This document shows, one piece after another, positions 4,082 through 20,147 of a stretch of 64,000 bases of DNA; the first letter of the stretch is position 1, and each line of letters opens with the position of its first letter. Under the pieces are notes generated by a model that worked only from the letters and a program-made list of their open reading frames with translations, was not told the DNA's origin and ran no database searches. The translations under genes and the position numbers were made by a program. This DNA is from Flavobacteriales bacterium (GTDB lineage: Bacteria; Bacteroidota; Bacteroidia; Flavobacteriales_C; CBFIFL01): contig CBFIFL010000001.1 of the NCBI GenBank assembly GCA_965661855.1, positions 20,182 through 84,181 of the forward strand, given 5' to 3'.

Positions 4082-4141
4082 TTATTACTTTGTAATATCA
4101 GTAAATTGAGGGTGTTTTTACTTTTCCACTAACCACTAACC

Positions 4142-4894
4142 CTAAATATTCTGTTTCACAATTTTCATGAACTTAGAAGCATAAACGAATTCGTTTACTT
4201 CAGGATTATCTGTCTTTAAGATTTCCTCTTTGCTTCCATTCCACCATAATTGTCCTTCATGAATAAAAGAAATATGGTCACCTATTTCAATCACTGAGTT
4301 CATGTCGTGAGAAATGACAACCGTTGTCATGTTGTATTCTTCGGTGATGTCTTTAATCAAGTTATCAATTACAATGGAGGTTCTTGGATCTAGACCAGAG
4401 TTTGGTTCATCACAGAAAAGATATTTAGGGTTCATTGCAATGGCTCTTGCAATAGCAACACGTTTTTGCATTCCTCCCGAAATCTCTCCAGGATATAAAT
4501 GATTGGCATTGCTGATATTCACTCTATCTAAACAGAAGTTAACTCGATCTAGTTTTTCTTCTTTAGTCATGTCAGTAAACATGTCTAAAGGGAACATGAT
4601 GTTTTCTTGAACAGTTTGAGAGTCAAATAACGCTCCAGCCTGAAAAAGCATCCCGATTTCTTTTCGAACATCCTTTTTCTCATTGAAAGACATTTCAAAA
4701 AAGTTTTGTCCATCATAAAGAACTTGACCTTGATCAATATCTAACAGACCAACTAGACACTTAAATAAAACAGATTTTCCAGCTCCTGATTGACCGATAA
4801 TCATGTTTACTCTTCCTTGTTGAAGATCTACATTGATATCTTTCAGAATCTCTCTTCCATCAAAACCTTTGTATATTCCTTTCGCTTCTATCAT
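4142..4894 (-). CDS. ABC transporter ATP-binding protein, MlaF/Ttg2A-like
   Basis: Walker A GQSGAGKSV, signature ISGGMQKRVAIARA, Walker B LFCDEP, H-loop. Overlaps the upstream permease by 4 nt. Confidence 0.8.
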   Translation of the reverse strand: MIEAKGIYKGFDGREILKDINVDLQQGRVNMIIGQSGAGKSVLFKCLVGLLDIDQGQVLYDGQNFFEMSFNEKKDVRKEIGMLFQAGALFDSQTVQENIMFPLDMFTDMTKEEKLDRVNFCLDRVNISNANHLYPGEISGGMQKRVAIARAIAMNPKYLFCDEPNSGLDPRTSIVIDNLIKDITEEYNMTTVVISHDMNSVIEIGDHISFIHEGQLWWNGSKEEILKTDNPEVNEFVYASKFMKIVKQNI

Positions 4895-5643
4895 TGCAAT
4901 AATAGTTGAGTTAAGATTACATCAAAAAGAAGAATAGCAATACTAGAGTAAACAACTCCTTTGGTAGATGCTGAACCAACTTCTAAAGCTCCTCCTTTTG
5001 TCATGAACCCATGATAAGAAGATACACTTGAAATGATAAAGGCAAATACTACCGTTTTAAGTAAAGCGAAAATTACGTTGAAAGGAACAAATCCATATTG
5101 GATTCCATCGATGAAATCTTGTCCAGTAACTGCTCCTGTCGTGATACTAGCAATGTATCCTCCTAGTACTCCTAAAAACATAGATAGGATAACTAAGAAT
5201 GGATTAATAATAACGGATGCTATAATTTTTGGTGCAATTAAAAAGGCAGCTGAATTAACTCCCATGATTTCAAGTGCGTCTACCTGTTCCGTTACTTTCA
5301 TGGTACCTATTTCAGATGCCATATTCGATCCTACTTTTCCTGCCAATATTAAACTGATAATAGTTGGAGAAAAGGCTAAGATCATTGAATCTCTTGTTGC
5401 AACACCTTCAGCGTATGACGGTACCCAAGGACTTTCAAATCCGTAAGCAGACTGAATAAGGATTACAGCTCCCATGAAAACGGAGATGATGGAAACAATC
5501 CCCAAAGAGCCTAAACCTACCTTGTCAATTTCTTTAATAACCTGCTGCCAGTAAAGCGCTTTGCTTTCAGGTCTACCGAAAACTCTTTTCAGTAGTATGT
5601 AATAAAGTCCTAAATGATTGAATATATTTAACATCCGTAGCAA
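4891..5643 (-). CDS. ABC transporter permease, MlaE family
   Basis: Polytopic membrane protein of about 250 aa immediately upstream of the MlaF-like ATPase and translationally coupled to it. Confidence 0.75.
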   Translation of the reverse strand: MLRMLNIFNHLGLYYILLKRVFGRPESKALYWQQVIKEIDKVGLGSLGIVSIISVFMGAVILIQSAYGFESPWVPSYAEGVATRDSMILAFSPTIISLILAGKVGSNMASEIGTMKVTEQVDALEIMGVNSAAFLIAPKIIASVIINPFLVILSMFLGVLGGYIASITTGAVTGQDFIDGIQYGFVPFNVIFALLKTVVFAFIISSVSSYHGFMTKGGALEVGSASTKGVVYSSIAILLFDVILTQLLLQ

Positions 5644-5726
5644 TGATTCTCTGCTAATTTACAATTAAGTAACGAATGCTGTTAGAATGTGTTGTGTAGT
5701 TATTCGTGACAGACTGTTAATATCTG

Positions 5727-6338
5727 ATGAAAGCAACAAATAAACTGGATTTCTGGAAAACATTAGTACACCCACATAGCTTGTTGGCTTTTGAGGAAAT
5801 CGTTGAGCAACACCCGGTTTTAATCAAAGTATCTGCTTCACGAAAATCAAAATATGGAGATTTTAGAGCTTTTCCTGGAGATAGAAAAGACACCATTTCA
5901 GTTAATGGAAATTTGAATGAATCTTCTTTTATGTTAACGTTGATTCATGAATTAGCACATAAGTTAACCTGGGATGAGTTCAAACGATCAGTTGATCCTC
6001 ATGGAAAAGAATGGAAGAATAACATGCAAAAGCTTTTAGAAGTCTTTTTGGAATTAGAAGTCTTCCCTGGAAATCTATCCGCAGCTATCAAACGTCATAT
6101 TCACGATTGGAAAGCGGTAAGCATAAGGATGAAGGAAGTATATGAGGTGTTGATGGTGTTAGAAGGGAAGGAGCTAGTGAGTTTAGATGAACTAGCATTC
6201 AATGCAATATTTCAAACGGAAGATGGAAAACGCTTCGTTAAAGGAGAAGTCTTAAGGAAGTACGTTATCTGCACATCACTTGAAAATAAAAGACAATATA
6301 AGGTTCACAAACACTTACTGGTTGAAGTAATTAATTAA
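5727..6338 (+). CDS. SprT-like zinc metallopeptidase domain protein
   Basis: HExxH motif (LIHELAHKL) in a roughly 200-aa SprT-like layout. Confidence 0.55.
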   Translation: MKATNKLDFWKTLVHPHSLLAFEEIVEQHPVLIKVSASRKSKYGDFRAFPGDRKDTISVNGNLNESSFMLTLIHELAHKLTWDEFKRSVDPHGKEWKNNMQKLLEVFLELEVFPGNLSAAIKRHIHDWKAVSIRMKEVYEVLMVLEGKELVSLDELAFNAIFQTEDGKRFVKGEVLRKYVICTSLENKRQYKVHKHLLVEVIN

Positions 6339-6383
6339 GACATAACCGCTATTTGTTTCTTATTTTTGCCCACTTAATAAGTA

Positions 6384-7478
6384 TTGATTTTCATGGAAAA
6401 TAATTACTGCGTAATCATGGCTGGAGGAATCGGAAGTAGATTCTGGCCAATGAGCAAAACAGATCGCCCGAAACAATTTATAGATGTACTAGGAGTTGGT
6501 AAATCTTTAATCCAAATCACTTTTGATAGATTAAGAAAAATCGCGCCTGCTGAAAATATTTTCGTGGTGACAAATGAGAGTTACACAGACTTGGTAAAAG
6601 AACATTTACCAGAGTTAGGTGACGATCAAATTTTAAACGAACCGTTAAGAAGAAATACAGCACCTTGCGTTGCATATGCTGCATATAAAATCAGAGAAAT
6701 TAATCCGAATGCAAACATGGTGGTGGCTCCAAGCGATCACTTGGTTTTAAATGAGGAAGAGTTTACTCGTGTTATCTTAAAAGCATTAGATGTTACTAGT
6801 CAGTCTGGTAATCTAGTTACACTTGGTATTCAGCCAAACAGACCAGATACTGGTTATGGTTATATCCAAGAAAGTACGGAAGCTTTAAGTATCGATGAAG
6901 AATTCAAAAAAGTAAAAACGTTCACAGAAAAGCCTGAGCTAGAAATGGCTAAGTTTTTCTTAAGCAGTGGAGATTTCTACTGGAACTCAGGAATATTTGT
7001 TTGGAACGCATCAACTATAATCCAATCTTTTGAGCAACACTTACCTGATATGGCAGAGTTGTTTGAAAACGGACGTGATAAGTATTCAACTCATCAAGAA
7101 GTCTCTTATTTGGAGGAGATCTACGAGGTATGTACAAACATCTCGATTGATTACGGAATCATGGAGAAGTCTGATAACGTTTATGTTCTTCCATGTGAAT
7201 TTGGTTGGTCTGATTTAGGTACTTGGGGATCTCTGTACGATAGATTAGAAAAGGATGAATTTCAAAATGCTGTAGCTGGTAAGAAGGTAAGATTATACGA
7301 TTCTACTAACTGTGTAGTAAATGCACCAGCTGATAAGTTGATTGTGTTACAAGGATTGAATGACTACATCGTTGTTGAATCGGATAACGCATTATTGGTT
7401 TGTCAGAAAGAAAACGAACAGAAGATTAAGCAGTTTGTTAAAGACTTGAAATTAGAGTTCGGAGAACAATACGTTTAA
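6384..7478 (+). CDS. manC: Mannose-1-phosphate guanylyltransferase (GDP-mannose pyrophosphorylase)
   Basis: N-terminal nucleotidyltransferase motif CVIMAGGIGSRFWPMS. Length 364 aa, typical of ManC/CpsB. Confidence 0.75.
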   Translation: MIFMENNYCVIMAGGIGSRFWPMSKTDRPKQFIDVLGVGKSLIQITFDRLRKIAPAENIFVVTNESYTDLVKEHLPELGDDQILNEPLRRNTAPCVAYAAYKIREINPNANMVVAPSDHLVLNEEEFTRVILKALDVTSQSGNLVTLGIQPNRPDTGYGYIQESTEALSIDEEFKKVKTFTEKPELEMAKFFLSSGDFYWNSGIFVWNASTIIQSFEQHLPDMAELFENGRDKYSTHQEVSYLEEIYEVCTNISIDYGIMEKSDNVYVLPCEFGWSDLGTWGSLYDRLEKDEFQNAVAGKKVRLYDSTNCVVNAPADKLIVLQGLNDYIVVESDNALLVCQKENEQKIKQFVKDLKLEFGEQYV

Positions 7479-7483
7479 TTGAA

Positions 7484-8284
7484 ATGAAAAGACTAACTAA
7501 GACTTTAAAAGGATTGTGGGAGATTGCTAAAAACCCATGGTTGTTGAATAAAGTTTTAGAACAGGATGATGTTTGGTTCAAAACCTTGGAAAAAAGGTAT
7601 GGTCTAACCAATACTTTCCCAGTTATTAATTGCAAGCAATTCTTTAAAAAGGATAGCTTAAACACTTTTGGTTTTCTAGGTGGAGGATCCTTACCAACCG
7701 ATATTCTATTATTAAAGTCATTAGCCGCTTCAATTGAGAACTGTTCTTATTTTGAAATTGGTACTTGGAGAGGAGAGAGTGTTATCAATGTTGCGGATGC
7801 AGCAAAAGAGTGCTACACTTTAAACCTATCCAAACAAGATATACTAGACTTAGGTCTGAACGAAAAGTATGCTGATTTGCACGCTTTCTTTTCAAAAGGA
7901 AAAGAGAATATTACACACCTGCATGGTAACTCATTGAATTTTGATTTCACTGGATTGAACAAAAAGTTTGATTTGATCTTTATTGATGGGGATCATCATT
8001 ATGAGATGGTGAAGAACGATACCAAAAGAGTATTTGAAAGTTTAGTACATGATAATACCATAGTAGTTTGGCATGATTATGCGCATACGCCTGAACAGGT
8101 TAGAGGCGAGGTAATGGCCGGTATTTATGAGGGAGTTCCTGCCGATCAAAGAAAACATTTATACCATGTATCGAATACAATGTGTGCGATATATATCAAA
8201 GGGGATTTTGATACTTATTCTTTAGAATATCCAGATACACCGATACATAAATTCAGATTAGATATTTCTTTAGAAGACCTTTAG
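7484..8284 (+). CDS. Class I SAM-dependent methyltransferase-fold protein (CmcI/TylF-like O-methyltransferase)
   Basis: Motif FIDGDHHYEMV typical of the CmcI/TylF family. Lies 6 bp after manC, so probably co-transcribed. Confidence 0.45.
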   Translation: MKRLTKTLKGLWEIAKNPWLLNKVLEQDDVWFKTLEKRYGLTNTFPVINCKQFFKKDSLNTFGFLGGGSLPTDILLLKSLAASIENCSYFEIGTWRGESVINVADAAKECYTLNLSKQDILDLGLNEKYADLHAFFSKGKENITHLHGNSLNFDFTGLNKKFDLIFIDGDHHYEMVKNDTKRVFESLVHDNTIVVWHDYAHTPEQVRGEVMAGIYEGVPADQRKHLYHVSNTMCAIYIKGDFDTYSLEYPDTPIHKFRLDISLEDL

Positions 8285-8331
8285 TTCGTTTCTTTTAAAA
8301 CGAATCGAATATGAAAAATTCACTTCTTTTA

Positions 8332-8649
8332 TTATCGATCATCTTCTTCATCAGAATATCCGATTACAATGTTCGCTCTAGGGTTAGATTTGAATGTTTC
8401 TTTAATAATTTGTACCGATTCTTTTCTGTCTTTTTCGCTTGCTATAAACATGAATGTGAATGCAGAAAGAAGAGTTAACCTAAAGACTGTAAAAGTGTTG
8501 CTAATTCTTACCTCGGTAGTTGGTGTTTTAACAACAATGTATTTTGTTACAGGCGGTTTAGGAGAAGAAATGATGTGTGGATATGCTACAACAGCTTTTC
8601 TTTTTGGATTCTTTTTGACAATAATACATAGAGAAAAGTAAAAGTTCAT
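8332..8649 (-). CDS. Hypothetical small protein (105 aa). Strand assignment is uncertain because a hydrophobic ORF overlaps it on the plus strand (8369..8641).
   Basis: The minus-strand ORF has a more protein-like (K/E-rich) composition than the overlapping plus-strand ORF. Neither has a recognisable motif. Confidence 0.25.
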   Translation of the reverse strand: MNFYFSLCIIVKKNPKRKAVVAYPHIISSPKPPVTKYIVVKTPTTEVRISNTFTVFRLTLLSAFTFMFIASEKDRKESVQIIKETFKSNPRANIVIGYSDEEDDR

Positions 8650-8733
8650 CTAGCCTTAATGAATCAGTTTTAGAATATGTAGTTCAACACCCTTGCTTTT
8701 ACTTAACTTTGCAATTCATATAAATAATGTCTT

Positions 8734-9846
8734 GTGGGAAAATTTGAAGATTTAGGAGTAAGAAAAGAATTTGTAAAAGGATTAAAAGAGTTAAACATCA
8801 TTAATCCTACAGAGATTCAGGAAAAAGCAATTCCATTATTAATTTCAAAAGCAGGAGATTTAGTTGGTCAAGCACAAACAGGTACTGGTAAAACAGCGGC
8901 GTTTGGTTTACCACTTTTACATAAGATTGACACTAAGAGCAAGAAAGTTCAGGCTTTGATATTGTGTCCGACTAGAGAGCTAGGGCAGCAAGTTGCAAAG
9001 CAATTGTTCAAGTTCACTAAATACTCAGATAGAATTTTTACAGAGGCAGTGTACGGTGGAGAAAATATCGAAATTCAGATTGGTAAACTAAAGAGACCTA
9101 CACACATTATTGTAGCAACTCCAGGTAGATTATTGGATTTAATCCGAAGAAAAGCAGTGGATATTAGACAAGTTAAAACGATTGTTTTAGACGAAGCTGA
9201 TGAAATGCTAAGTATGGGATTCAAAGAAGAACTAGAAGCAATACTAACAGGAATCAAATCTGCAGAAAGCAGATGGTTGTTCTCAGCTACTATTTCAAAA
9301 GACATCAACGATATCATATACAACTACCTTTCTAGAAGCGCGCATAGAATCGCAATCGCATCTGAAAATGTAGTTAACCAAAATATCAAGCATGAATTCT
9401 TAGCTTGTAAAGACGCTGATAAATTAGAGAACATTCTAGCTTACTTAAGTTCACAAGATGAGAGCAGAGGAGTGATTTTCTGTAAGACAAAAGCAGAGAC
9501 TCAGAAATTAGCAGAGCAGCTAAAAAGCAAAGGTGTTTCAGCTGATGCCATCAACGGTGACTTAAAGCAAAAGGAAAGAGATAAGGTAATGAGAGCTTTC
9601 AAAAACGAGAGTTTACAAGTCTTAATCGCAACAGACCTTGCAGCAAGGGGAATCGACATCGAAGACCTAGCATACGTAGCTCATTACTCCATGCCAGACA
9701 AAGCTGAATACTACACGCATAGAAGTGGTAGAACAGCAAGAGCTGGAAAAACAGGAACATCTATTTCGTTTGTAAATAACAAAGAATTAAAAAGCTTAAA
9801 GATCTTCCAAAAAGAGTTGGGATTTAAGCTGAATGATTTGGGGTAG
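8734..9846 (+). CDS. DEAD-box ATP-dependent RNA helicase
   Basis: Q-motif region, Walker A AQTGTGKT, DEAD box VLDEADEM, SAT, HRSGRTAR. Apparent GTG start at 8734. Confidence 0.85.
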   Translation: MGKFEDLGVRKEFVKGLKELNIINPTEIQEKAIPLLISKAGDLVGQAQTGTGKTAAFGLPLLHKIDTKSKKVQALILCPTRELGQQVAKQLFKFTKYSDRIFTEAVYGGENIEIQIGKLKRPTHIIVATPGRLLDLIRRKAVDIRQVKTIVLDEADEMLSMGFKEELEAILTGIKSAESRWLFSATISKDINDIIYNYLSRSAHRIAIASENVVNQNIKHEFLACKDADKLENILAYLSSQDESRGVIFCKTKAETQKLAEQLKSKGVSADAINGDLKQKERDKVMRAFKNESLQVLIATDLAARGIDIEDLAYVAHYSMPDKAEYYTHRSGRTARAGKTGTSISFVNNKELKSLKIFQKELGFKLNDLG

Positions 9847-9876
9847 TTGTATCATTAGGAGCTATTACATTAGTCA

Positions 9877-10248
9877 ATGAACAAATCAATCATCCAAAAT
9901 GAATTCACCTATAAAGCAGTCAGAAGTTCTGGCCCTGGTGGATAACACGTAAACCGTGTTTCGTCGAAGGTTGTTTTGTCTTTTAATGTAGTTGATTCAG
10001 AAGGTTTAAGGGAAGAGGAAAAAGAATTGTTGCTGGTCAAGTTAGCTTCTCGGTTGACTTAAGATAATGTATTGATACTTTCTTGTGATGAAACGAGAAG
10101 CCAATTCAAGAATAAGTTGAAGGTGATTGAACGCTGTTTTCAAATTTTAAAGCAGGGATTGTATAAAGAAAAAAAGCGTAAACCTACCAAACCAAGTAAG
10201 AGCTCTATAAGGCGCTTTAAAGAGAATAAAAAAAACTGTTTTCTATAA
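9877..10248 (+). pseudogene. arfB: Degraded arfB (peptidyl-tRNA hydrolase, ribosome-rescue factor ArfB/YaeJ) with two in-frame TAA stops
   Basis: A single frame from ATG 9877 reads MNKSIIQNEFTYKAVRSSGPGG*HVNRVSSKVVLSFNVVDSEGLREEEKELLLVKLASRLT*DNVLILSCDETRSQFKNKLKVIERCFQILKQGLYKEKKRKPTKPSKSSIRRFKENKK... It is co-linear with ArfB (GGQ peptidyl-tRNA hydrolase domain followed by a basic C-terminal tail, RKPTKP). TAA at 9943-9945 replaces the Gln codon of GGQ. A second TAA lies at 10060-10062. Confidence 0.7.
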
Positions 10249-10599
10249 ACCAACCGATCCAAGTAAACAGTAAACCAATGAGAATAGCCAGAGCTACACA
10301 AATAACTTTTTACATATCAATTGCTATGGGCAATAACAAAAACAAGCCTAAACTTAATAAAGTACTATAAACAGCTTCTCAAATTAGTAAGAAATCCAGA
10401 ACTTATACCTACAACTAAAGGCATAAAGAAGAAAAGTTATACAAACGTGATTTGGTCTTCTTTTCCAGTGTATAGATAAATAAATCGGTGGGCAGTTTCG
10501 GCCGGGATTCAGAACAATACACTGTCCCGGGTTAAATATATTCCATTTATTTTTGTCCAACACAAAAATGTCAGGCATCTATAAATCTGAATAAATGGA

Positions 10600-12187
<1,588 letters not shown>

Positions 12188-12192
12188 CGTTT

Positions 12193-13989
12193 TTAGAGAA
12201 TTCCAGCACCATCTTCGCTGCTAGATATCAAGCTTCTCAAGTTATTAAATAACTGTCTTCCATGTGTTGGATTAACATAAATCACTTTTCGAGGTTTTCG
12301 TTTATTCAAATCTTTTTCAAGGCATTCAATTCTTCCATTGGTTGCATCTAATAATAATTTGTCCCCCGTTTTTATTTTTCCAATTAAACCGTTTTGGGCA
12401 GCCTCCGGACTAACATGGATTGCTGCAGGAACTTTTCCTGAAGCTCCAGACATTCTTCCATCAGTGATTAGACCAACTTTAAATCCTTTTCGCTGTAAAA
12501 TAGTAAGTGAAGGAGTGAGTTTGTGTAATTCAGGCATTCCTTTTTGCTTCGGACCCTGAAATGGAAGAACTGCAATGAAATCTTTTTCTAATTCACCAGC
12601 TTTGAATGCTTGTATCAAGTCTTCTTGGTGATCAAATACAATGGCATCAGCTTCAATTTTATGATGAGTAGCTTCTACTGCTGAAGTTTTTATAACTGCA
12701 GTTCCAATATTTCCCTTTAACACTTTTAATCCTCCTGTTTTATTAAAAGGATTATTAGCACTTCTAAGTATTTTGTCGTTTAAAGAAGCTTCAGGACCAT
12801 TTTGATAATTAATTTTTCCGTTCTCTTGTTTCGGCTCTTTAGTAAACTTTCTCAAACCTTTACCAAGAATTGTATTCACATCTTCATGTAAGAATCCTTG
12901 GTCTATCATTGTTTTAATAACAAAAGACATGCCTCCCGATGCATGAAAATGATTAACGTCAGCTGCTCCATTTGGGTATATCCTGCAAATCAATGGAACC
13001 ACTTCGGATAAATCTGAAAAGTCATCCCATGTTATTTTGATTCCAGCTGCTTTTGCAATAGCAATTAAATGAAGGGTATGATTTGTTGAGCCTCCTGTTG
13101 CCAGAAGGCCGATAATTCCGTTCACTATGCTTTTTTCATTAACAATAGCTCCAATAGTTCTAGAGAAATCTCTTGATTTAATATTCTCAAGAAGAACTCT
13201 TAAAGCCTCTCTATTAAGAGCTTTTCTCATTGACGTCCCTGGGTTTACAAAACTTGATCCTGGAAGTTGAAGTCCCATAATTTCCATTAGCATTTGATTG
13301 CTATTTGCAGTTCCGTAGAATGTGCAAGTGCCGGGTGAGTGGTAAGAATCTGATTCTCCTTTTAGAAGCTGTTCTCTTCCAATTTTACCTTCAGCGAACT
13401 TTTGTCTAATACTTGCTTTTTCTTCGTTTGGAATTCCACTTGGCATCGGGCCACCTGGAAGGAATAGTGAGTGATAATGACCGAATGCAAGGTTTCCAAT
13501 TAATAATCCAGGAACAATTTTATCACAGATTCCCAAATTAACCACGCCATCATACATGTCATGAGAAAGACCGATTGCTGCGGATAGAGCAATAACATCC
13601 CTGCTCAGCAACGAAAGGTCCATTCCTGGTTGTCCTTGAGTTACTCCATCGCACATAGCTGGTGTTGCGCCTGCCACCTGAATTGTTGCATTCATTTCTG
13701 CGGCGTATGACCTTAATTCATTTGGGTATTGCTCATAAGGTTTGTGAGCTGAAAGCATGTCGTTGTAAGCTGAAATAATTCCTAAATTTGGTTTGATTCC
13801 CTCTGCAATCATTGATTTTTCATCAGCTGCACATCCAGCAAATCCATGTGCAAGATTACCGCAACTCAATCCTCGTCTTCCCGTTGAGTGATTAAAGTTA
13901 TGTTCTGTGTCTTTAAGGTACTTCTCCCTTGTCTTTATACTTCGTTCGACAATCCGAGTAGTAATTTCTTCTATTTTTTTATCTATCAT
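12193..13989 (-). CDS. edd: 6-phosphogluconate dehydratase (IlvD/EDD family)
   Basis: Co-linear with Edd across the whole 598 aa (ACGNLAHGFA, CDGVTQG, CDKIVPGL, TFYGTANSNQ, ATGGSTNHT, TDGRMSGASGKVPAAIHVSPEA). Positioned between pgl and eda. Confidence 0.85.
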   Translation of the reverse strand: MIDKKIEEITTRIVERSIKTREKYLKDTEHNFNHSTGRRGLSCGNLAHGFAGCAADEKSMIAEGIKPNLGIISAYNDMLSAHKPYEQYPNELRSYAAEMNATIQVAGATPAMCDGVTQGQPGMDLSLLSRDVIALSAAIGLSHDMYDGVVNLGICDKIVPGLLIGNLAFGHYHSLFLPGGPMPSGIPNEEKASIRQKFAEGKIGREQLLKGESDSYHSPGTCTFYGTANSNQMLMEIMGLQLPGSSFVNPGTSMRKALNREALRVLLENIKSRDFSRTIGAIVNEKSIVNGIIGLLATGGSTNHTLHLIAIAKAAGIKITWDDFSDLSEVVPLICRIYPNGAADVNHFHASGGMSFVIKTMIDQGFLHEDVNTILGKGLRKFTKEPKQENGKINYQNGPEASLNDKILRSANNPFNKTGGLKVLKGNIGTAVIKTSAVEATHHKIEADAIVFDHQEDLIQAFKAGELEKDFIAVLPFQGPKQKGMPELHKLTPSLTILQRKGFKVGLITDGRMSGASGKVPAAIHVSPEAAQNGLIGKIKTGDKLLLDATNGRIECLEKDLNKRKPRKVIYVNPTHGRQLFNNLRSLISSSEDGAGIL

Positions 13990-14657
13990 GCCTTTGAATA
14001 AAATATATTAATATCGCTTCTTCTTTTCATGACCTCATGAATCGGAAGCTTTTTAGTTTTATCGTTTAGAACCTGCCACTTGTCCATGCCCGAAATGAAA
14101 AGAATAATCGTTTGGGCAGAGCATATCAAGTCCATACCGCAGGTAATTCGATCTTGTGGGTGGTCTGGTGCGTTAGTATTGAAAATTGTTTTCTCTGATG
14201 ATTCATAAGCTGTTTTAGATCCTTCATCATCTGGGAATATAGATGCTGTGTGCCCATCTTTTCCCATGCCAAGTATAACTAAATCGGTGCGTTCGATAAA
14301 CGGGGTGTACTTTTCTCTTACGATTTGTAGGTTCTTGTATTTATCACTTTTATCAAATACCATTCCTGTTATGTTGTTTTTCTTCACCTTTTCATGCGTA
14401 AAGCAGTCTCGAATCAATCGCTCATTACTGAATTCACTCAGAGTATTAACATATCGCTCATCAACCAGTCCAAAATTTATGGAATCGATGAATTCACAAT
14501 TTTTATTCAATAACTTATATATTGGTCCAGGTGTGCTACCTCCCGACAGCAAAACCCTCACAGAATTATGCTTGGCGAGTGACTTTTCCATGGACATTAT
14601 TATGGAATTAACACCATTACTGATTAGATCCTCTTTATGATTGAAAGATTTTGTCAT
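13986..14657 (-). CDS. pgl: 6-phosphogluconolactonase
   Basis: Glucosamine-6-P isomerase/6PGL fold motifs (LLSGGSTP, GMGKDGHTASIFP). 4-nt overlaps with zwf and edd indicate an operon. Confidence 0.8.
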   Translation of the reverse strand: MTKSFNHKEDLISNGVNSIIMSMEKSLAKHNSVRVLLSGGSTPGPIYKLLNKNCEFIDSINFGLVDERYVNTLSEFSNERLIRDCFTHEKVKKNNITGMVFDKSDKYKNLQIVREKYTPFIERTDLVILGMGKDGHTASIFPDDEGSKTAYESSEKTIFNTNAPDHPQDRITCGMDLICSAQTIILFISGMDKWQVLNDKTKKLPIHEVMKRRSDINIFYSKA

Positions 14658-16108
14658 AATTCATTTGTATTCCATTTTACGTTTTCTTCCAATATTTGAT
14701 TACCAGGGCCCCATGAACCGGATTCATATAAGGTAAGAGGAACTTCTTCTTTCCAGTTCTTGGTAATTGACTCTATCCAGTGCCATGCAGCCTCAAGCTC
14801 GTCATGACGCATGAATAAAGTTTGATTCCCTCGAATAACATCCATAATTAGTCGTTCGTATGCATCTGGCATTCGGTTTTTGAATGAGTCAACAAAATCT
14901 AGTTTCAACGAAATAGGCTTAAATCTGTAGCCTCCCGGCCCTGGAACTTTACTTAACTGAACCAATTCAATTCGTTCTTCAGGTTGTAATCGTATAATTA
15001 ACTTATTTCGCAGTGGATATTTCGATTCTGGGAATATATTATGAGGAAGCTCCTTGAAATTGATGATAATATCCGAGTATCTTTTCTTCATCCGTTTTCC
15101 GGTACGCAGATATATAGGAGTGTTTTTCCAACGCCAGTTGTCGATGTTTGTTTTGATTGCAACAAAGGTTTCTGTTTCAGAATCGTAAGCGTCAATATCT
15201 TCTAAGTAAGAATTAAGTTTTTTATTGTCAACTGAACCTCTTGTGTATTGACCACGAACAACATCCTTATTTATTGTTTCTTTTGTGAAAGGACGCAAAG
15301 ACTGAAGTACTTTTAATTTTTCGTTTCTAACCGCATCAGGATTTAAATTTGAAGGAGGCTCCATGGCAATCAGACAGAGTAATTGAAGTAGATGGTTCTG
15401 CACCATATCTAACAATGCTCCGGTATGATTGTAATATCCTGCGCGTTTTTCAACTCCTAAGCTTTCTGCTACGGTAATTTGAATACTTTCAATATTGTCT
15501 GCATTCCAGGCTCTTTCAAAAAGATGATTGGCAAAGCGCAGCACCATTAGGTTCTGAACAGTTTCTTTTCCTAGGTAGTGATCAATTCTGAATATTTGAT
15601 GTTCATCAAAAGCGGTGGATATAATTTTATTTATTTCCTGACTAGATTTCAAGCTATTACCAAGTGGCTTTTCCAATACTACCTTACTTTCCTTTGTGAT
15701 CAAATCCGTTGCTTTCAATGCTTGACATATCTCTGAAAATGCACTTGAGGGAACAGAAAAGTAAAAAATTCGTTGTCTTTCAGGAGTCTTATCTAAATGC
15801 TTTTTAAGAGTTTGATAATGTTTTTGTTCGTTTTTTGCTATATGAACCAGTCTCAAGTTTTTAAAGAATTCATGTGTGTCATCATTTTCGGTTAATGAGA
15901 TGAATTCACTAACTTCTTTGATAAAATCATTTTTATCTAATTTTTCTCTGCACAAACATAGAATTTCAAACATCAAGTTAAGTTGACCTTCCTTAAATCT
16001 ATGAAAAAGAGCTGGGATTATCTTACGTTTAGACAAGTCTCCATTACCTCCGAATATCAAGATGTTGAAGGGTTTGAAGTCTGTTGAATTAACTCGATAT
16101 GATTTCAT
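14654..16108 (-). CDS. zwf: Glucose-6-phosphate 1-dehydrogenase
   Basis: Signature RIDHYLGKE, NAD(P)-binding N-terminus, 484 aa. Confidence 0.9.
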   Translation of the reverse strand: MKSYRVNSTDFKPFNILIFGGNGDLSKRKIIPALFHRFKEGQLNLMFEILCLCREKLDKNDFIKEVSEFISLTENDDTHEFFKNLRLVHIAKNEQKHYQTLKKHLDKTPERQRIFYFSVPSSAFSEICQALKATDLITKESKVVLEKPLGNSLKSSQEINKIISTAFDEHQIFRIDHYLGKETVQNLMVLRFANHLFERAWNADNIESIQITVAESLGVEKRAGYYNHTGALLDMVQNHLLQLLCLIAMEPPSNLNPDAVRNEKLKVLQSLRPFTKETINKDVVRGQYTRGSVDNKKLNSYLEDIDAYDSETETFVAIKTNIDNWRWKNTPIYLRTGKRMKKRYSDIIINFKELPHNIFPESKYPLRNKLIIRLQPEERIELVQLSKVPGPGGYRFKPISLKLDFVDSFKNRMPDAYERLIMDVIRGNQTLFMRHDELEAAWHWIESITKNWKEEVPLTLYESGSWGPGNQILEENVKWNTNEL

Positions 16109-16140
16109 AATTTAATGTTTGTCTCTTTAAATATAATACC

Positions 16141-16161
16141 TTTTTGTAAAAAGTACAATAA
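16141..16161. promoter_or_regulatory. 21-bp palindrome TTTTTGT-N7-ACAATAA in the divergent zwf / sugar-kinase intergenic region (candidate operator, site 1 of 4)
   Basis: Sequence tttttgtaaaaagtacaataa. Same 7-7-7 architecture as the sites at 20198, 29373 and 29560. Lies 54 bp upstream of the 16215 start. Confidence 0.5.
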
Positions 16162-16214
16162 CAAATATTTTTTTTATATATTTGATAGAGATAATGTAAA
16201 ACTTTAGTCACAGC

Positions 16215-17102
16215 ATGTTTGTAGTAGTTGAAAGTGGGTCGACAAAAGCGGATTGGATGGTAATTACCAATGGTGAAGAAAAAGCATACAGCACCAAAGG
16301 TTTTAATCCATACTTCCATTCAAAACAAGACATTTTGATCGAATTGAATGATCATCTTGAATTAGATCTTATTAAAGGAGAGGTAAAAGAATTGTATTTC
16401 TATGGTGCAGGATGTTCTAGTTCGGAATTGAATAAAATTATTGAAAACGGTTTGAAAGCCTTTTTTATCAACGCGAAAATAACAGTAAGCCACGACTTGA
16501 GTGCATGCGCATACGCCTGTTATAATGGTGTTTCGGAGATAGCATGTATTCTTGGAACGGGTTCCAATTCTTGTTTTTATGACGGTAACGAAGTTCATGA
16601 GGAACTCCCTGCATTGGGTCATATATTGGGAGATGAGGGGAGTGGAAGCTATTTTGGAAAAAGACTTTTAGCTGATTTTCTTTATGGTAAACTGCCGGCA
16701 CCTTTGCATCAAGAGCTAATCGGTAAAGGTTTAAATAGTGCGAGGATTATTGAAAATGTTTATCGAAAATCTAATGCTAATGTCTACATAGCATCTTTTA
16801 TGCCTGCGCTAGTAAGACACAAAGAGTTAGAATATTCTCAGAGTTTAATTAAAAAAGGCTTTAAAAAATTTATTGATACACATGTAAAGTGTTACAGTAA
16901 TTATAAGCAATGTGAAGTCAATTTTGTTGGATCTTTAGCGGATTTGCTTCAAGAAGAATTGATAGCGGTTTGTGAGGAATCTAATATAACGGTTGGACGA
17001 ATTATACGTAGACCACTGGATAATCTGGTTAGTTATCACAAAAACAAACAAGGAATGGCTCAAAAATCATTGAGTGCGAAGGATATAGATCAGTTGAATT
17101 GA
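16215..17102 (+). CDS. BadF/BadG/BcrA/BcrD-type ATPase family sugar kinase (N-acetylglucosamine kinase-like; candidate glucokinase)
   Basis: ASKHA-fold N-terminus MFVVVESGSTKADW and GTGSNSC motif. Length 295 aa. Confidence 0.65.
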   Translation: MFVVVESGSTKADWMVITNGEEKAYSTKGFNPYFHSKQDILIELNDHLELDLIKGEVKELYFYGAGCSSSELNKIIENGLKAFFINAKITVSHDLSACAYACYNGVSEIACILGTGSNSCFYDGNEVHEELPALGHILGDEGSGSYFGKRLLADFLYGKLPAPLHQELIGKGLNSARIIENVYRKSNANVYIASFMPALVRHKELEYSQSLIKKGFKKFIDTHVKCYSNYKQCEVNFVGSLADLLQEELIAVCEESNITVGRIIRRPLDNLVSYHKNKQGMAQKSLSAKDIDQLN

Positions 17103-17158
17103 TAAGCGTCTAGATACTCTGTTGTATCAACTACTATTTTAGTTATTAATTTTAAATT

Positions 17159-19447
17159 ATGGGAACAAGATTAATTCTTTTCACGATTAACTTTCTTTTC
17201 GGTTTTTTTGTTGTTTCGCAAAGTAAACCATCAATCTCATCACCTGAAATTGAAGCGGAAGTAAAGTCTATTCTGTCAGCTATGTCACTGGAGGAAAAAG
17301 TAGGTCAAACATGCCAAATAACTCTGGATGTTCTTTTGGAAATAGATGCTGAAGGAAAGATTGTTGAACCCATTCGTGTGGACAAGAAAAAGATTTATGA
17401 GGCTTTAGTGGAATACAAGGTGGGTTCAATATTGAATGTTGGTTGGCATACCTTGAGCATTGAAGAGTGGGATCATGTTATGGAGAATGTTCATTCGCCT
17501 TTCAAACAGGAAAAAGTAAAAACACCAATTATTTACGGGATTGATGCTATTCACGGTGTTAATTATACGATTAATGGAACATTATTCCCTCAAGAAATTG
17601 GCTTAGCAGCTACTTGGAACCCTGATTTAGCTAAGGAGTTTGGAAACGTTACAGCCTATGAAACTAGGGCTTCAGGAATACCTTGGAACTTTTCACCAGT
17701 TCTTGATTTAGGTCGTCAACCGCTTTGGTCAAGAACATTTGAAACACTTGGTGAGGACCCTTATTTGGCTTCTGAAATGGGTAAGGCAATAATTCTCGGA
17801 TATCAAGGAACTAGTGGCCCAGATTCAGTTCATGTAGCAGCATGCTTGAAACATTTTGTTGGATATAGTAATCCATTGAGTGGAAGAGACAGAACTCCAG
17901 CATGGATTCCTGAAAAGTACATGAGAGAATTATACATGCCGCCTTTTAAGGAGGCAATTGAGCAAGGAGCGCTTACAGTTATGGTTAATAGTGGAGTTGT
18001 AAATGGTGTTCCTGGACATGCAAATTATCACTTTTTGACAGAGGTTTTAAAGGAAGAATGGGGATTTGATGGGTTTGCCGTTTCTGACTGGGAAGATTTT
18101 CTAATGCTTAATACTGTGCACAGGACAGCAGAGTCTAAGAAGGCCGGTATTGTCCAGGCAATAAATGCGGGAATGGACATGAGTATGGTGCCTAATGCTC
18201 CGCAGTATATTGAGTATTGTGATTTAATGAAAGACGCTATCAACGAAGGGAGTATTTCGATGCAACGTTTAGATGATGCAGTGAGTCGTATTTTACGTGT
18301 TAAACTTATTCTTGGCCTATACGAAAAGAGGATGAATCAGTCCGGAGAATATCCAGATTTTGCATCAAAAGAGCATAAGGAATTGGCTTTGCAATCTGCT
18401 TTAGAGTCCATTACGCTTTTGAAAAACAATGGAGTTCTCCCTCTTAAGAAAGATCAGAAAGTACTCATTAGCGGTCCTACATCAAATAATTTGACATTCC
18501 TAAATGGAGCATGGACACATACTTGGCAAGGAGATAATCCAGATTTTAATACTTCTGGTAGACCAACAGTTCTGGAGGAATTTGAGCGTATTTTGGGTAA
18601 AGAGAATGTTCTTTTTAGTCAGGGAGTAGAACTTTTTGTAGAAGATCAGTATGAGACTGCAAGGTTATTGGATACTACTGATTTCAAAATAAAAGCTCAG
18701 CTTTCTGAGGTTATTGTTCTGTGTCTGGGTGAATATCCAGCTACAGAAAAACCAGGGGATATCCGTTCTTTGAATATATCTCCTGAACAAATCAAACTAG
18801 CTGAAATGGCTTATGCCACTGGAAAACCGGTTGTCATTATTTTAATTGAAGGACGTCCTCGAATTATTCGTGATATTGTAGATGAAAGTTCGGCTATTGT
18901 TCAGGCTTATCTTCCCGGAGATTTTGGTGCTGATGCATTAGGGCAGTTGCTTTTTGGAGAAGTGAATTTTTCGGGAAGGCTTCCTTATTCATATCCTAAA
19001 TATGATGGACAAATAGAATTTTATGACCATCCTAGAAGTGTAGATAGGCACAAAAATGGTTTTAACGCCTATCAACCTGAGTGGGATTTTGGCTATGGAA
19101 TCAGTTACGCTTCATATGAATATACAAACCTAACGCTCAGTAGAAAAAATATGACAAAAGAAGACTCAATTGTTGTAACTGTAGACGTTCACAATACAGG
19201 GAATGTCGATGGGAAAGAGGTTGTTCAGTTATATATATCTGACCATTTTGCATCGCTAATACCAGCTGGTAAATCGCTTAAAGGATTTTCAAAAATTGAA
19301 CTAAAAGCAGGAGAGACAAAGAAAGTCCGTTTTGTTGTTTATGAAGAAGATTTAGTATTTTATAAGGAAAACGAGGGCTGGATTTCCGAAAAAGGTGATT
19401 TTAGTGTCATGGTGGATAATTTAGAACAAACATTTCAACTTAAATAG
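17159..19447 (+). CDS. Glycoside hydrolase family 3 beta-glucosidase (BglX-like), secreted
   Basis: Signal peptide. GH3 N- and C-domain motifs (KHFVGY, catalytic GFAVSDW) and a C-terminal fibronectin-like domain. Length 762 aa. Confidence 0.9.
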   Translation: MGTRLILFTINFLFGFFVVSQSKPSISSPEIEAEVKSILSAMSLEEKVGQTCQITLDVLLEIDAEGKIVEPIRVDKKKIYEALVEYKVGSILNVGWHTLSIEEWDHVMENVHSPFKQEKVKTPIIYGIDAIHGVNYTINGTLFPQEIGLAATWNPDLAKEFGNVTAYETRASGIPWNFSPVLDLGRQPLWSRTFETLGEDPYLASEMGKAIILGYQGTSGPDSVHVAACLKHFVGYSNPLSGRDRTPAWIPEKYMRELYMPPFKEAIEQGALTVMVNSGVVNGVPGHANYHFLTEVLKEEWGFDGFAVSDWEDFLMLNTVHRTAESKKAGIVQAINAGMDMSMVPNAPQYIEYCDLMKDAINEGSISMQRLDDAVSRILRVKLILGLYEKRMNQSGEYPDFASKEHKELALQSALESITLLKNNGVLPLKKDQKVLISGPTSNNLTFLNGAWTHTWQGDNPDFNTSGRPTVLEEFERILGKENVLFSQGVELFVEDQYETARLLDTTDFKIKAQLSEVIVLCLGEYPATEKPGDIRSLNISPEQIKLAEMAYATGKPVVIILIEGRPRIIRDIVDESSAIVQAYLPGDFGADALGQLLFGEVNFSGRLPYSYPKYDGQIEFYDHPRSVDRHKNGFNAYQPEWDFGYGISYASYEYTNLTLSRKNMTKEDSIVVTVDVHNTGNVDGKEVVQLYISDHFASLIPAGKSLKGFSKIELKAGETKKVRFVVYEEDLVFYKENEGWISEKGDFSVMVDNLEQTFQLK

Positions 19448-19448
19448 T

Positions 19449-20147
19449 ATGTCTTATAAGATTAAGTTTGATAATTTTTTCTCTTACTCATTCTCTTTAG
19501 ATTGTGTCATTTTTGGTTTTAAAGAAGGAAAGTTACATGCATTGTTGATTAAAAGAGCAATGGAGCCATACATGGGCGAGTGGGCAATTCCTGGAAATCT
19601 TGTTTATCCCGATGAAGATTTACCTGATGCGGCGAATAGAATTCTCACAGAGTTGACAAAAGTTAAAAATGTAGTTCTTCATCAAGGTCAAACATTTGGT
19701 AAACCAAATAGACATCCTCAAGGTCGCGTAATTACTAATGCTTACTTTGCTTTAGTTAGGATTGACGAAATAAATGCTTTTGCCGCTTCATGGGCAGAGG
19801 AAGTAAAATGGGTTCCGGTTAAAGAGTTACCGAGTTTAGCATTCGATCATAAAAAGATATTAGACTCTACATTTGAATTATTAAAGCAAAAACTGAAACA
19901 TGAACCTATTTGTTTCGATCTTTTACCAAAGAAGTTTCCACTGGTTGAAATGCAAAATCTTTATGAATATGCTTTCGACTCTGCATTAGATAAAGCTAAT
20001 TTTAGAAAAAAAATTAAGTCAATACCATTAATTAATCTGGAAGAAAAACAGCAGAATGTTAAACATCGTCCTGCAAATCTATTCAAATTCGATATTCAAC
20101 GTTTTTCAGAGATGGTAAAAGAGGAAAACTATCTTTTCAGAATGTAA
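19449..20147 (+). CDS. Nudix hydrolase-fold transcriptional regulator (NrtR-like; candidate sugar-utilisation regulator)
   Basis: N-terminal Nudix fold (GEWAIPGNLVYPDEDLPDAANRILTELT) followed by a C-terminal domain of about 90 aa, the expected size for the winged-helix domain of NrtR-type regulators. Starts 2 bp after the GH3 gene. Confidence 0.5.
   Translation: MSYKIKFDNFFSYSFSLDCVIFGFKEGKLHALLIKRAMEPYMGEWAIPGNLVYPDEDLPDAANRILTELTKVKNVVLHQGQTFGKPNRHPQGRVITNAYFALVRIDEINAFAASWAEEVKWVPVKELPSLAFDHKKILDSTFELLKQKLKHEPICFDLLPKKFPLVEMQNLYEYAFDSALDKANFRKKIKSIPLINLEEKQQNVKHRPANLFKFDIQRFSEMVKEENYLFRM

Follow-up and report, generated by a model that had tools for sequence, protein, structure and literature searches.

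A truncated arfB pseudogene with two in-frame TAA codons in an uncultured marine Flavobacteriales population

What occupies the apparently empty interval between the DEAD-box RNA helicase gene and the gap gene in the 64,000-nucleotide stretch of Flavobacteriales DNA analyzed here (hereafter the window)? The interval, 753 nt between 9846 and 10600, contains no long ORF, as a preliminary description of the sequence had already stated. That description read in it an uncalled and decayed arfB, the gene of the ribosome-rescue peptidyl-tRNA hydrolase ArfB, of otherwise intact frame and length, and attributed its recent inactivation to two in-frame TAA codons, the first of them exactly at the glutamine of the catalytic GGQ motif. 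The locus therefore raises the questions of whether an arfB is present, whether TAA still acts as a stop codon within it, and which lesion silenced the gene. In this study, domain searches, intact orthologues and metagenome contigs of the same population were used to address them.

One forward frame at 9877-10248 encodes a 123-codon ArfB-like sequence, which ends in a TAA at 10246-10248 and translates as MNKSIIQNEFTYKAVRSSGPGG, stop, HVNRVSSKV...LASRLT, stop, DNVLILSCDETRSQFKNK...KKRKPTKPSKSSIRRFKENKKNCFL, stop. With both internal stops read as Gln, the product matched the Pfam RF-1 domain (PF00472, E 5e-16, residues 4-113) and scored 110.6 bits against the NCBIfam ArfB equivalog NF006718, for which the curated cut-off is 100. 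The RF-1 domain stands without stop-codon recognition domains, as in ArfB proteins of about 130-140 aa. Other hallmarks of ArfB are missing from the window, namely the Gly-Gly-Gln motif (GGPGG followed by TAA at codon 23), an open frame (interrupted by the two TAA codons) and the complete basic C-terminal tail with its equivalents of Arg118, Leu119, Lys122, Lys129 and Arg132, the native codons ending at 119. The features of the locus and their coordinates are listed in Table 1.

Table 1. Features of the arfB remnant and its surroundings, with positions counted from the first letter of the window
Feature	Coordinates	Strand	Basis or remark
DEAD-box RNA helicase gene, upstream neighbor	8734..9846	+	Ends 30 nt 5' of the arfB start in both lineages
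arfB remnant, codons 1-119 of the ancestral 134 (GGQ domain, linker, start of basic tail)	9877..10235	+	Gapless 98% match to ten intact loci
Missense site, Phe12 to Tyr in the window; alleles T, A and G in the truncated lineage	9911	+	Contig alignment
TAA in place of the CAA of Gln23 (the GGQ Gln), C to T at 9943	9943..9945	+	C in 10/10 intact loci, L018 and L101; T in 15/17 truncated-lineage sequences
TAA in place of the CAA of Gln62, C to T at 10060	10060..10062	+	C in 10/10 intact loci, L015, L106 and L101; T in 14/17 truncated-lineage sequences
G to T, Val114Phe, fixed in the truncated lineage; aligns to E. coli Arg118/Leu119	10216	+	Comparison with intact loci
Four foreign codons (Asn-Cys-Phe-Leu) and TAA, replacing the native last 15 codons (KRSDIKKSRRKPGLD)	10236..10248	+	Homology to ten intact loci stops here
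AT-rich filler, 268 nt, no intact ORF	10236..10503	.	Specific to the truncated lineage
gap (GAPDH), last gene of the zwf-pgl-edd-eda-gap cluster	10600..11607	-	Adjoins the remnant through the rearrangement

A protein search identified P0001, an intact ArfB of 134 residues sharing 98% identity with the conceptual product of the remnant. P0001 scored 123.9 bits against NF006718 (cut-off 100) in an alignment spanning the whole E. coli protein, and tblastn with P0001 found the remnant at E 4e-72. Together with the RF-1 and NF006718 matches, this orthologue substantiates the reading of the interval as an uncalled, decayed arfB. P0001 is encoded on ten metagenome contigs (L001-L010, hereafter the intact lineage), whose upstream gene order is that of the window: ABC transporter, MlaE, SprT-like, ManC, methyltransferase, DEAD-box helicase and arfB. 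The intact gene thus lies at the same locus, at 97-99% DNA identity across helicase and arfB, and all ten contigs align gaplessly to the window up to 10235, where homology ends. Downstream of the intact arfB lie a 276-aa gene, a gene for a Por-secretion-tail protein and further genes. The contig of a sister species (L119, with the ArfB P0002, 74% identical) carries different genes again downstream of arfB, and the region 3' of arfB hence differs from lineage to lineage.

A search of the GTDB representative genomes with P0001 returned no match, and a scan of GTDB with the neighboring helicase returned distant relatives only, at no more than 70% identity. Among the 80 Bacteroidota genomes with the closest helicase relatives (L021-L100), none had an arfB within 6 kb of the helicase gene. 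The adjacency of helicase and arfB is specific to the present lineage and the sister species on L119. Judging from the spacing, the two genes were probably co-transcribed, and no promoter-like site was found in the spacer between them. Around the remnant, matches to promoter and terminator consensus sequences were less frequent than in shuffled sequence; the sigma-70 consensus is in any case ill-suited to Bacteroidota.

The upstream part of the locus varies on its own account. Over 4138-10235, contigs L001-L003 share just 92.9% identity with the window, while identity is about 98-99% for the shorter contigs of the intact lineage that cover helicase and arfB alone. Their divergence probably lies mostly upstream, around the SprT-like and ManC genes, and this segment is possibly recombinant or a hypervariable surface-polysaccharide region. 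Indels in the upstream segment (4138-8600) were also seen in two contigs of the truncated lineage, L104 and L106. Between the methyltransferase and helicase genes, at 8311-8650, ORFs of 90 aa (+) and 105 aa (-) overlap on opposite strands; public assemblies disagree on which to call, and neither has a Pfam match.

The intact loci also settle what the two internal stops replaced. The residues before the first TAA read SSGPGG, which places codon 23 at the Gln of GGQ. In the alignment with orthologues that the preliminary description had proposed, all ten intact loci carry CAA at this codon, and they carry CAA at codon 62 as well, where a Gln codon had also been expected; both stops are therefore C to T nonsense changes.

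The two stops are not the only lesions. The remnant had been described as otherwise intact in length, which does not hold: its frame has 123 codons as against 134 in the orthologue, and 10236-10248 is not arfB. The junction at 10235/10236 can be placed to about 3 nt, in an A-run. In the HMMER alignment, residues 108-130 of P0001 align with residues 112-134 of E. coli ArfB, so that K118, K125 and R128 of P0001 correspond to K122, K129 and R132 of the E. coli protein. Native residues in the window end at K119, and the equivalents of E. coli Lys129 and Arg132 (K125 and R128) are gone. Accordingly, the ArfB model of 140 positions is covered from 11 to 137 by P0001 and from 11 to 125 by the truncated form.

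The ArfB tail lies as a helix within the empty mRNA channel, where it senses stalled ribosomes (PMC7641280; PMC8012679). In E. coli YaeJ/ArfB, the substitutions K129A and R132A left about 0% of the peptidyl-tRNA hydrolase activity, removal of the last 10 residues made activity undetectable, and the GGQ domain by itself, with the C-terminal extension removed, did not bind ribosomes (Kogure et al., PMC3950681). Judged by these E. coli mutants and the alignment, the truncation alone would probably be disabling.

Contigs carrying the truncated form (L011-L020 and L102-L113, hereafter the truncated lineage) were found by means of the window's GAPDH and two near-identical variants of it. More than 20 such contigs, 99.0-99.9% identical to the window, were obtained from independent samples, projects and assemblers, and in every one that was long enough, gap and helicase flanked an uncalled stretch of about 750 nt as they do in the window. 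Seventeen sequences, the window included, span the remnant. The truncation is present in 17/17 and the junction is identical in every contig of the lineage that reaches it.

A further sequence form came from the 90%-identity cluster of P0001, which includes P0167, a protein of 123 residues that ends in NCFL and has kept Phe12, the ancestral residue, along with the two Gln codons. The contig encoding it (L101, 653 nt) is co-linear with the window across the junction (window 9851-10503), is ancestral at 9868, 9911, 9943, 10038, 10060 and 10155, and shows derived states at 10216 (Val114Phe), 10233 and the junction alone; this single contig is the one source of the stop-free truncated allele. At the two stop sites (9943-10060) the haplotypes are C-C in L101, T-C in L015 and L106, C-T in L018 and T-T in the window, the window haplotype being both the commonest and the most decayed.

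Since the truncation is fixed while both stops still segregate, truncation came first and nonsense mutation later. And since the truncation occurs in 17/17 sequences, including the stop-free L101, arfB was most probably dead before the stops arose. Of the proposal that two nonsense changes had recently inactivated the gene, the recency of the decay stands, as shown by stops that are still polymorphic, and the inactivating cause does not, because the truncation is present even where the stops are missing. The presence of all four stop combinations implies recombination or recurrent mutation. Markers are linked within the remnant, 9911 with 9943 and 10038 with 10060, and the pattern points to one or more events of recombination or gene conversion over a distance of about 100 nt within the pseudogene. 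Separately, positions 3168-3615 of L113, on the window side below 9781 and within the 3'-terminal part of the helicase gene, have no similarity to the window; this contig either is chimeric or carries another rearrangement.

Analysis of the flanks led to the identification of two breakpoints. The gap-side contigs L116-L118, which come from the samples of the intact-arfB contigs and are 97.9% identical to the window, match it only from 10504 upward and carry a convergent thioredoxin-like gene about 292 nt past gap. Because L001-L010 stop matching at 10235 and L116-L118 at 10504, the breakpoints lie at 10235/6 and 10503/4. No contig of the intact lineage joins arfB to gap. The filler between the breakpoints matched neither the arfB-side nor the gap-side contigs of the intact lineage, nor L119, nor the rest of the window, and a 20-mer from it, searched in the JGI metagenomes, hit a single contig of this lineage plus one chance match, and no other context.

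Some features near the junction are recorded for completeness. On the minus strand of the filler, an ATG-TAA precedes a transmembrane-helix-like peptide (KVICVALAILIGLLFTWIGWFIE) extending into the junction, and this stub may be the 5' remainder of a second destroyed gene. At the second breakpoint, at about 10500-10535, lies an inverted repeat, CCGGGA...TCCCGG. Beyond it, the co-directional genes zwf-pgl-edd-eda-gap (10600-19450) form an Entner-Doudoroff / oxidative pentose phosphate cluster, which is kept in both lineages, with a GH3 glycosidase and a NUDIX/NrtR-type regulator alongside.

Polymorphism within the truncated lineage, counted over the aligned ranges only, comprised 9 segregating sites in 359 nt of the remnant (pi 0.0059) and 2 in 1113 nt of the helicase gene (pi 0.0002), an approximately 14-fold difference in site density (Fisher p = 1e-4; p = 6e-4 against helicase, gap and methyltransferase pooled). 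The intact lineage showed no such excess, with 1 site in 359 nt of arfB versus 7 in 1113 nt of the helicase gene, and the contrast between the two lineages was itself significant (p = 0.005). The site density of the remnant equals that of the adjoining non-coding spacer. By this measure the constraint on the remnant is relaxed relative both to its neighbors and to the intact orthologue. The second-codon position 9911, with three alleles, fits relaxed constraint too.

When changes in the truncated lineage were polarized on the intact lineage, the remnant had 7 non-synonymous or nonsense and 5 synonymous changes, as compared with 3 non-synonymous and 12 synonymous in the three immediate neighbor genes (p = 0.057); after eda and edd were added to the neighbors, the contrast was not significant. 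The ratio is suggestive of relaxed constraint.

Taken together, we interpret 9877-10248 as an arfB pseudogene of an uncultured marine Flavobacteriales population that was truncated and afterwards hit by nonsense mutations, and we assign this reading a probability of about 0.93. The ancestral arfB encoded 134 residues directly 3' of the DEAD-box helicase gene. A deletion or a more complex rearrangement then exchanged codon 120 onward and the genes that follow arfB in the intact lineage for 268 nt of unrelated DNA, and the same event placed the remnant beside gap. With the distal basic tail, ribosome binding and peptide release would have been lost, and by analogy with the E. coli mutants we infer inactivation at that step. 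Released from selection, the remnant then accumulated missense changes and two independent CAA to TAA changes, which are still polymorphic and have been shuffled by recombination. The double-stop haplotype of the window would yield a peptide of at most 22 residues, and ribosome rescue would presumably proceed through tmRNA-SmpB.

Two other accounts would leave a working ArfB in place, and we give hardly any credence to either. One attributes the stops to errors of sequencing or assembly, or the junction to a chimera, and holds the true arfB to be intact; the window does come from a metagenome-type assembly, and a 98%-identical intact allele occurs in the same kinds of samples. Against this account, the junction recurs in every contig of the lineage that reaches it, T at 9943 and 10060 is found in most of them across several projects and assemblers, and the stops carry consistent linked variants from contig to contig. 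Sequencing error, which the preliminary description had raised as a check, is ruled out by these independent assemblies (stops in 15/17 and 14/17). The other account, just as remote, is that recoding or readthrough of TAA, for instance as Gln, still allows a functional ArfB to be made. Both stops replace Gln, no indel breaks the frame, and a suppressor tRNA could lie beyond the window, within which the sole tRNA is a tRNA-Arg(TCT). Yet TAA terminates 29 of the 50 long ORFs in the window (G+C 35.4%) and is the commonest true stop there, the neighboring genes are long, and no other gene of the window is interrupted. The stops in arfB are derived and polymorphic and are missing in close relatives, that is, they are neither conserved nor followed by a constrained frame, the remnant evolving like non-coding DNA. 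Even a full read-through product would be without essential tail residues. Recoding had been judged unlikely from the start, and the stop usage and the derived, polymorphic state of the two codons bear this out.

A third account accepts the pseudogene and differs as to why the stops spread. A truncated ArfB with its GGQ motif intact and its sensor tail defective could have been harmful or wasteful, so that selection favored nonsense knock-outs which recombination later combined. Two independent nonsense alleles at 15/17 and 14/17 in a population more than 99% identical, their joining by recombination and the rarity of the stop-free truncated allele (1/17) speak for it; if it were true, the locus would be a natural case of the silencing of a damaged translation factor. 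We nevertheless consider it unlikely, if less so than the two accounts above. Tail-less E. coli ArfB simply fails to bind ribosomes, and toxicity is not expected (PMC3950681); contig counts are biased as allele frequencies, and clonal hitch-hiking would look alike. Moreover, two nonsense changes among five C to T substitutions have a probability of about 0.10-0.11 under neutrality, and these counts lend selection no positive support. The position of the first stop is equally uninformative: among the 119 retained codons only six, all CAA, can become nonsense by C to T (7, 23, 62, 76, 89 and 93), and the probability that codon 23 is among two such changes is 1 - C(5,2)/C(6,2) = 1/3. The stop exactly on the GGQ Gln is thus chance, without meaning, and the number of stops likewise needs no special cause.

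The loss of arfB by truncation and subsequent nonsense mutation is unremarkable in a flavobacterium, because ArfB is a back-up factor only, found in about 34% of representative bacterial genomes (PMC8012679), and tmRNA-SmpB trans-translation is essentially universal (PMC8012679; PMC4131195). ArfA-type rescue, which had been named with tmRNA as a possible fallback, is unlikely, since ArfA occurs only in some beta- and gamma-proteobacteria (PMC8012679; PMC4131195). Within the window, no ssrA (tmRNA), smpB or second RF-1-domain gene or arfB copy was found in a search in which the E. coli query sequences served as probes only. For annotation, the 753-nt interval deserves the label of an arfB pseudogene, neither a blank nor a case of recoding. 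Its wider value lies in the decay series preserved in one marine flavobacterial population, with intact, truncated but stop-free, either-stop and both-stop forms, which gives the order of events and cautions against over-reading a stop on a catalytic residue.

In kind, the feature is an ordinary and already known one, a pseudogene. ArfB is a homologue of mitochondrial ICT1/mL62, and structures of the E. coli protein (YaeJ) are 4V95, 6YSS and 7JSW. Like ArfB, the remnant has the RF-1-family GGQ domain, the RKPTKP linker and the start of the basic tail, and lacks codon-recognition domains; unlike ArfB, it has stops at the catalytic Gln and at codon 62, and the part of the tail with Lys129 and Arg132 is deleted. 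The programmed +1 frameshift of prfB (RF2) offers a second comparison, since this superfamily member likewise carries an in-frame stop, and on that account a stop inside arfB might at first be taken for a regulatory one. Across bacteria the prfB stop is conserved; it lies early in the gene in a defined frameshift context and permits a full-length protein to be made, whereas the arfB stops are derived and polymorphic, involve no change of frame and occur in a gene that is also truncated. The closest likeness is to pseudogenes that decay by rearrangement and then by point mutation, in which a structural lesion comes first, nonsense and missense changes follow at the neutral rate, and the region remains uncalled. 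From such ordinary decay the present locus differs in nothing of kind, except that the metagenomes here keep all the intermediate haplotypes.
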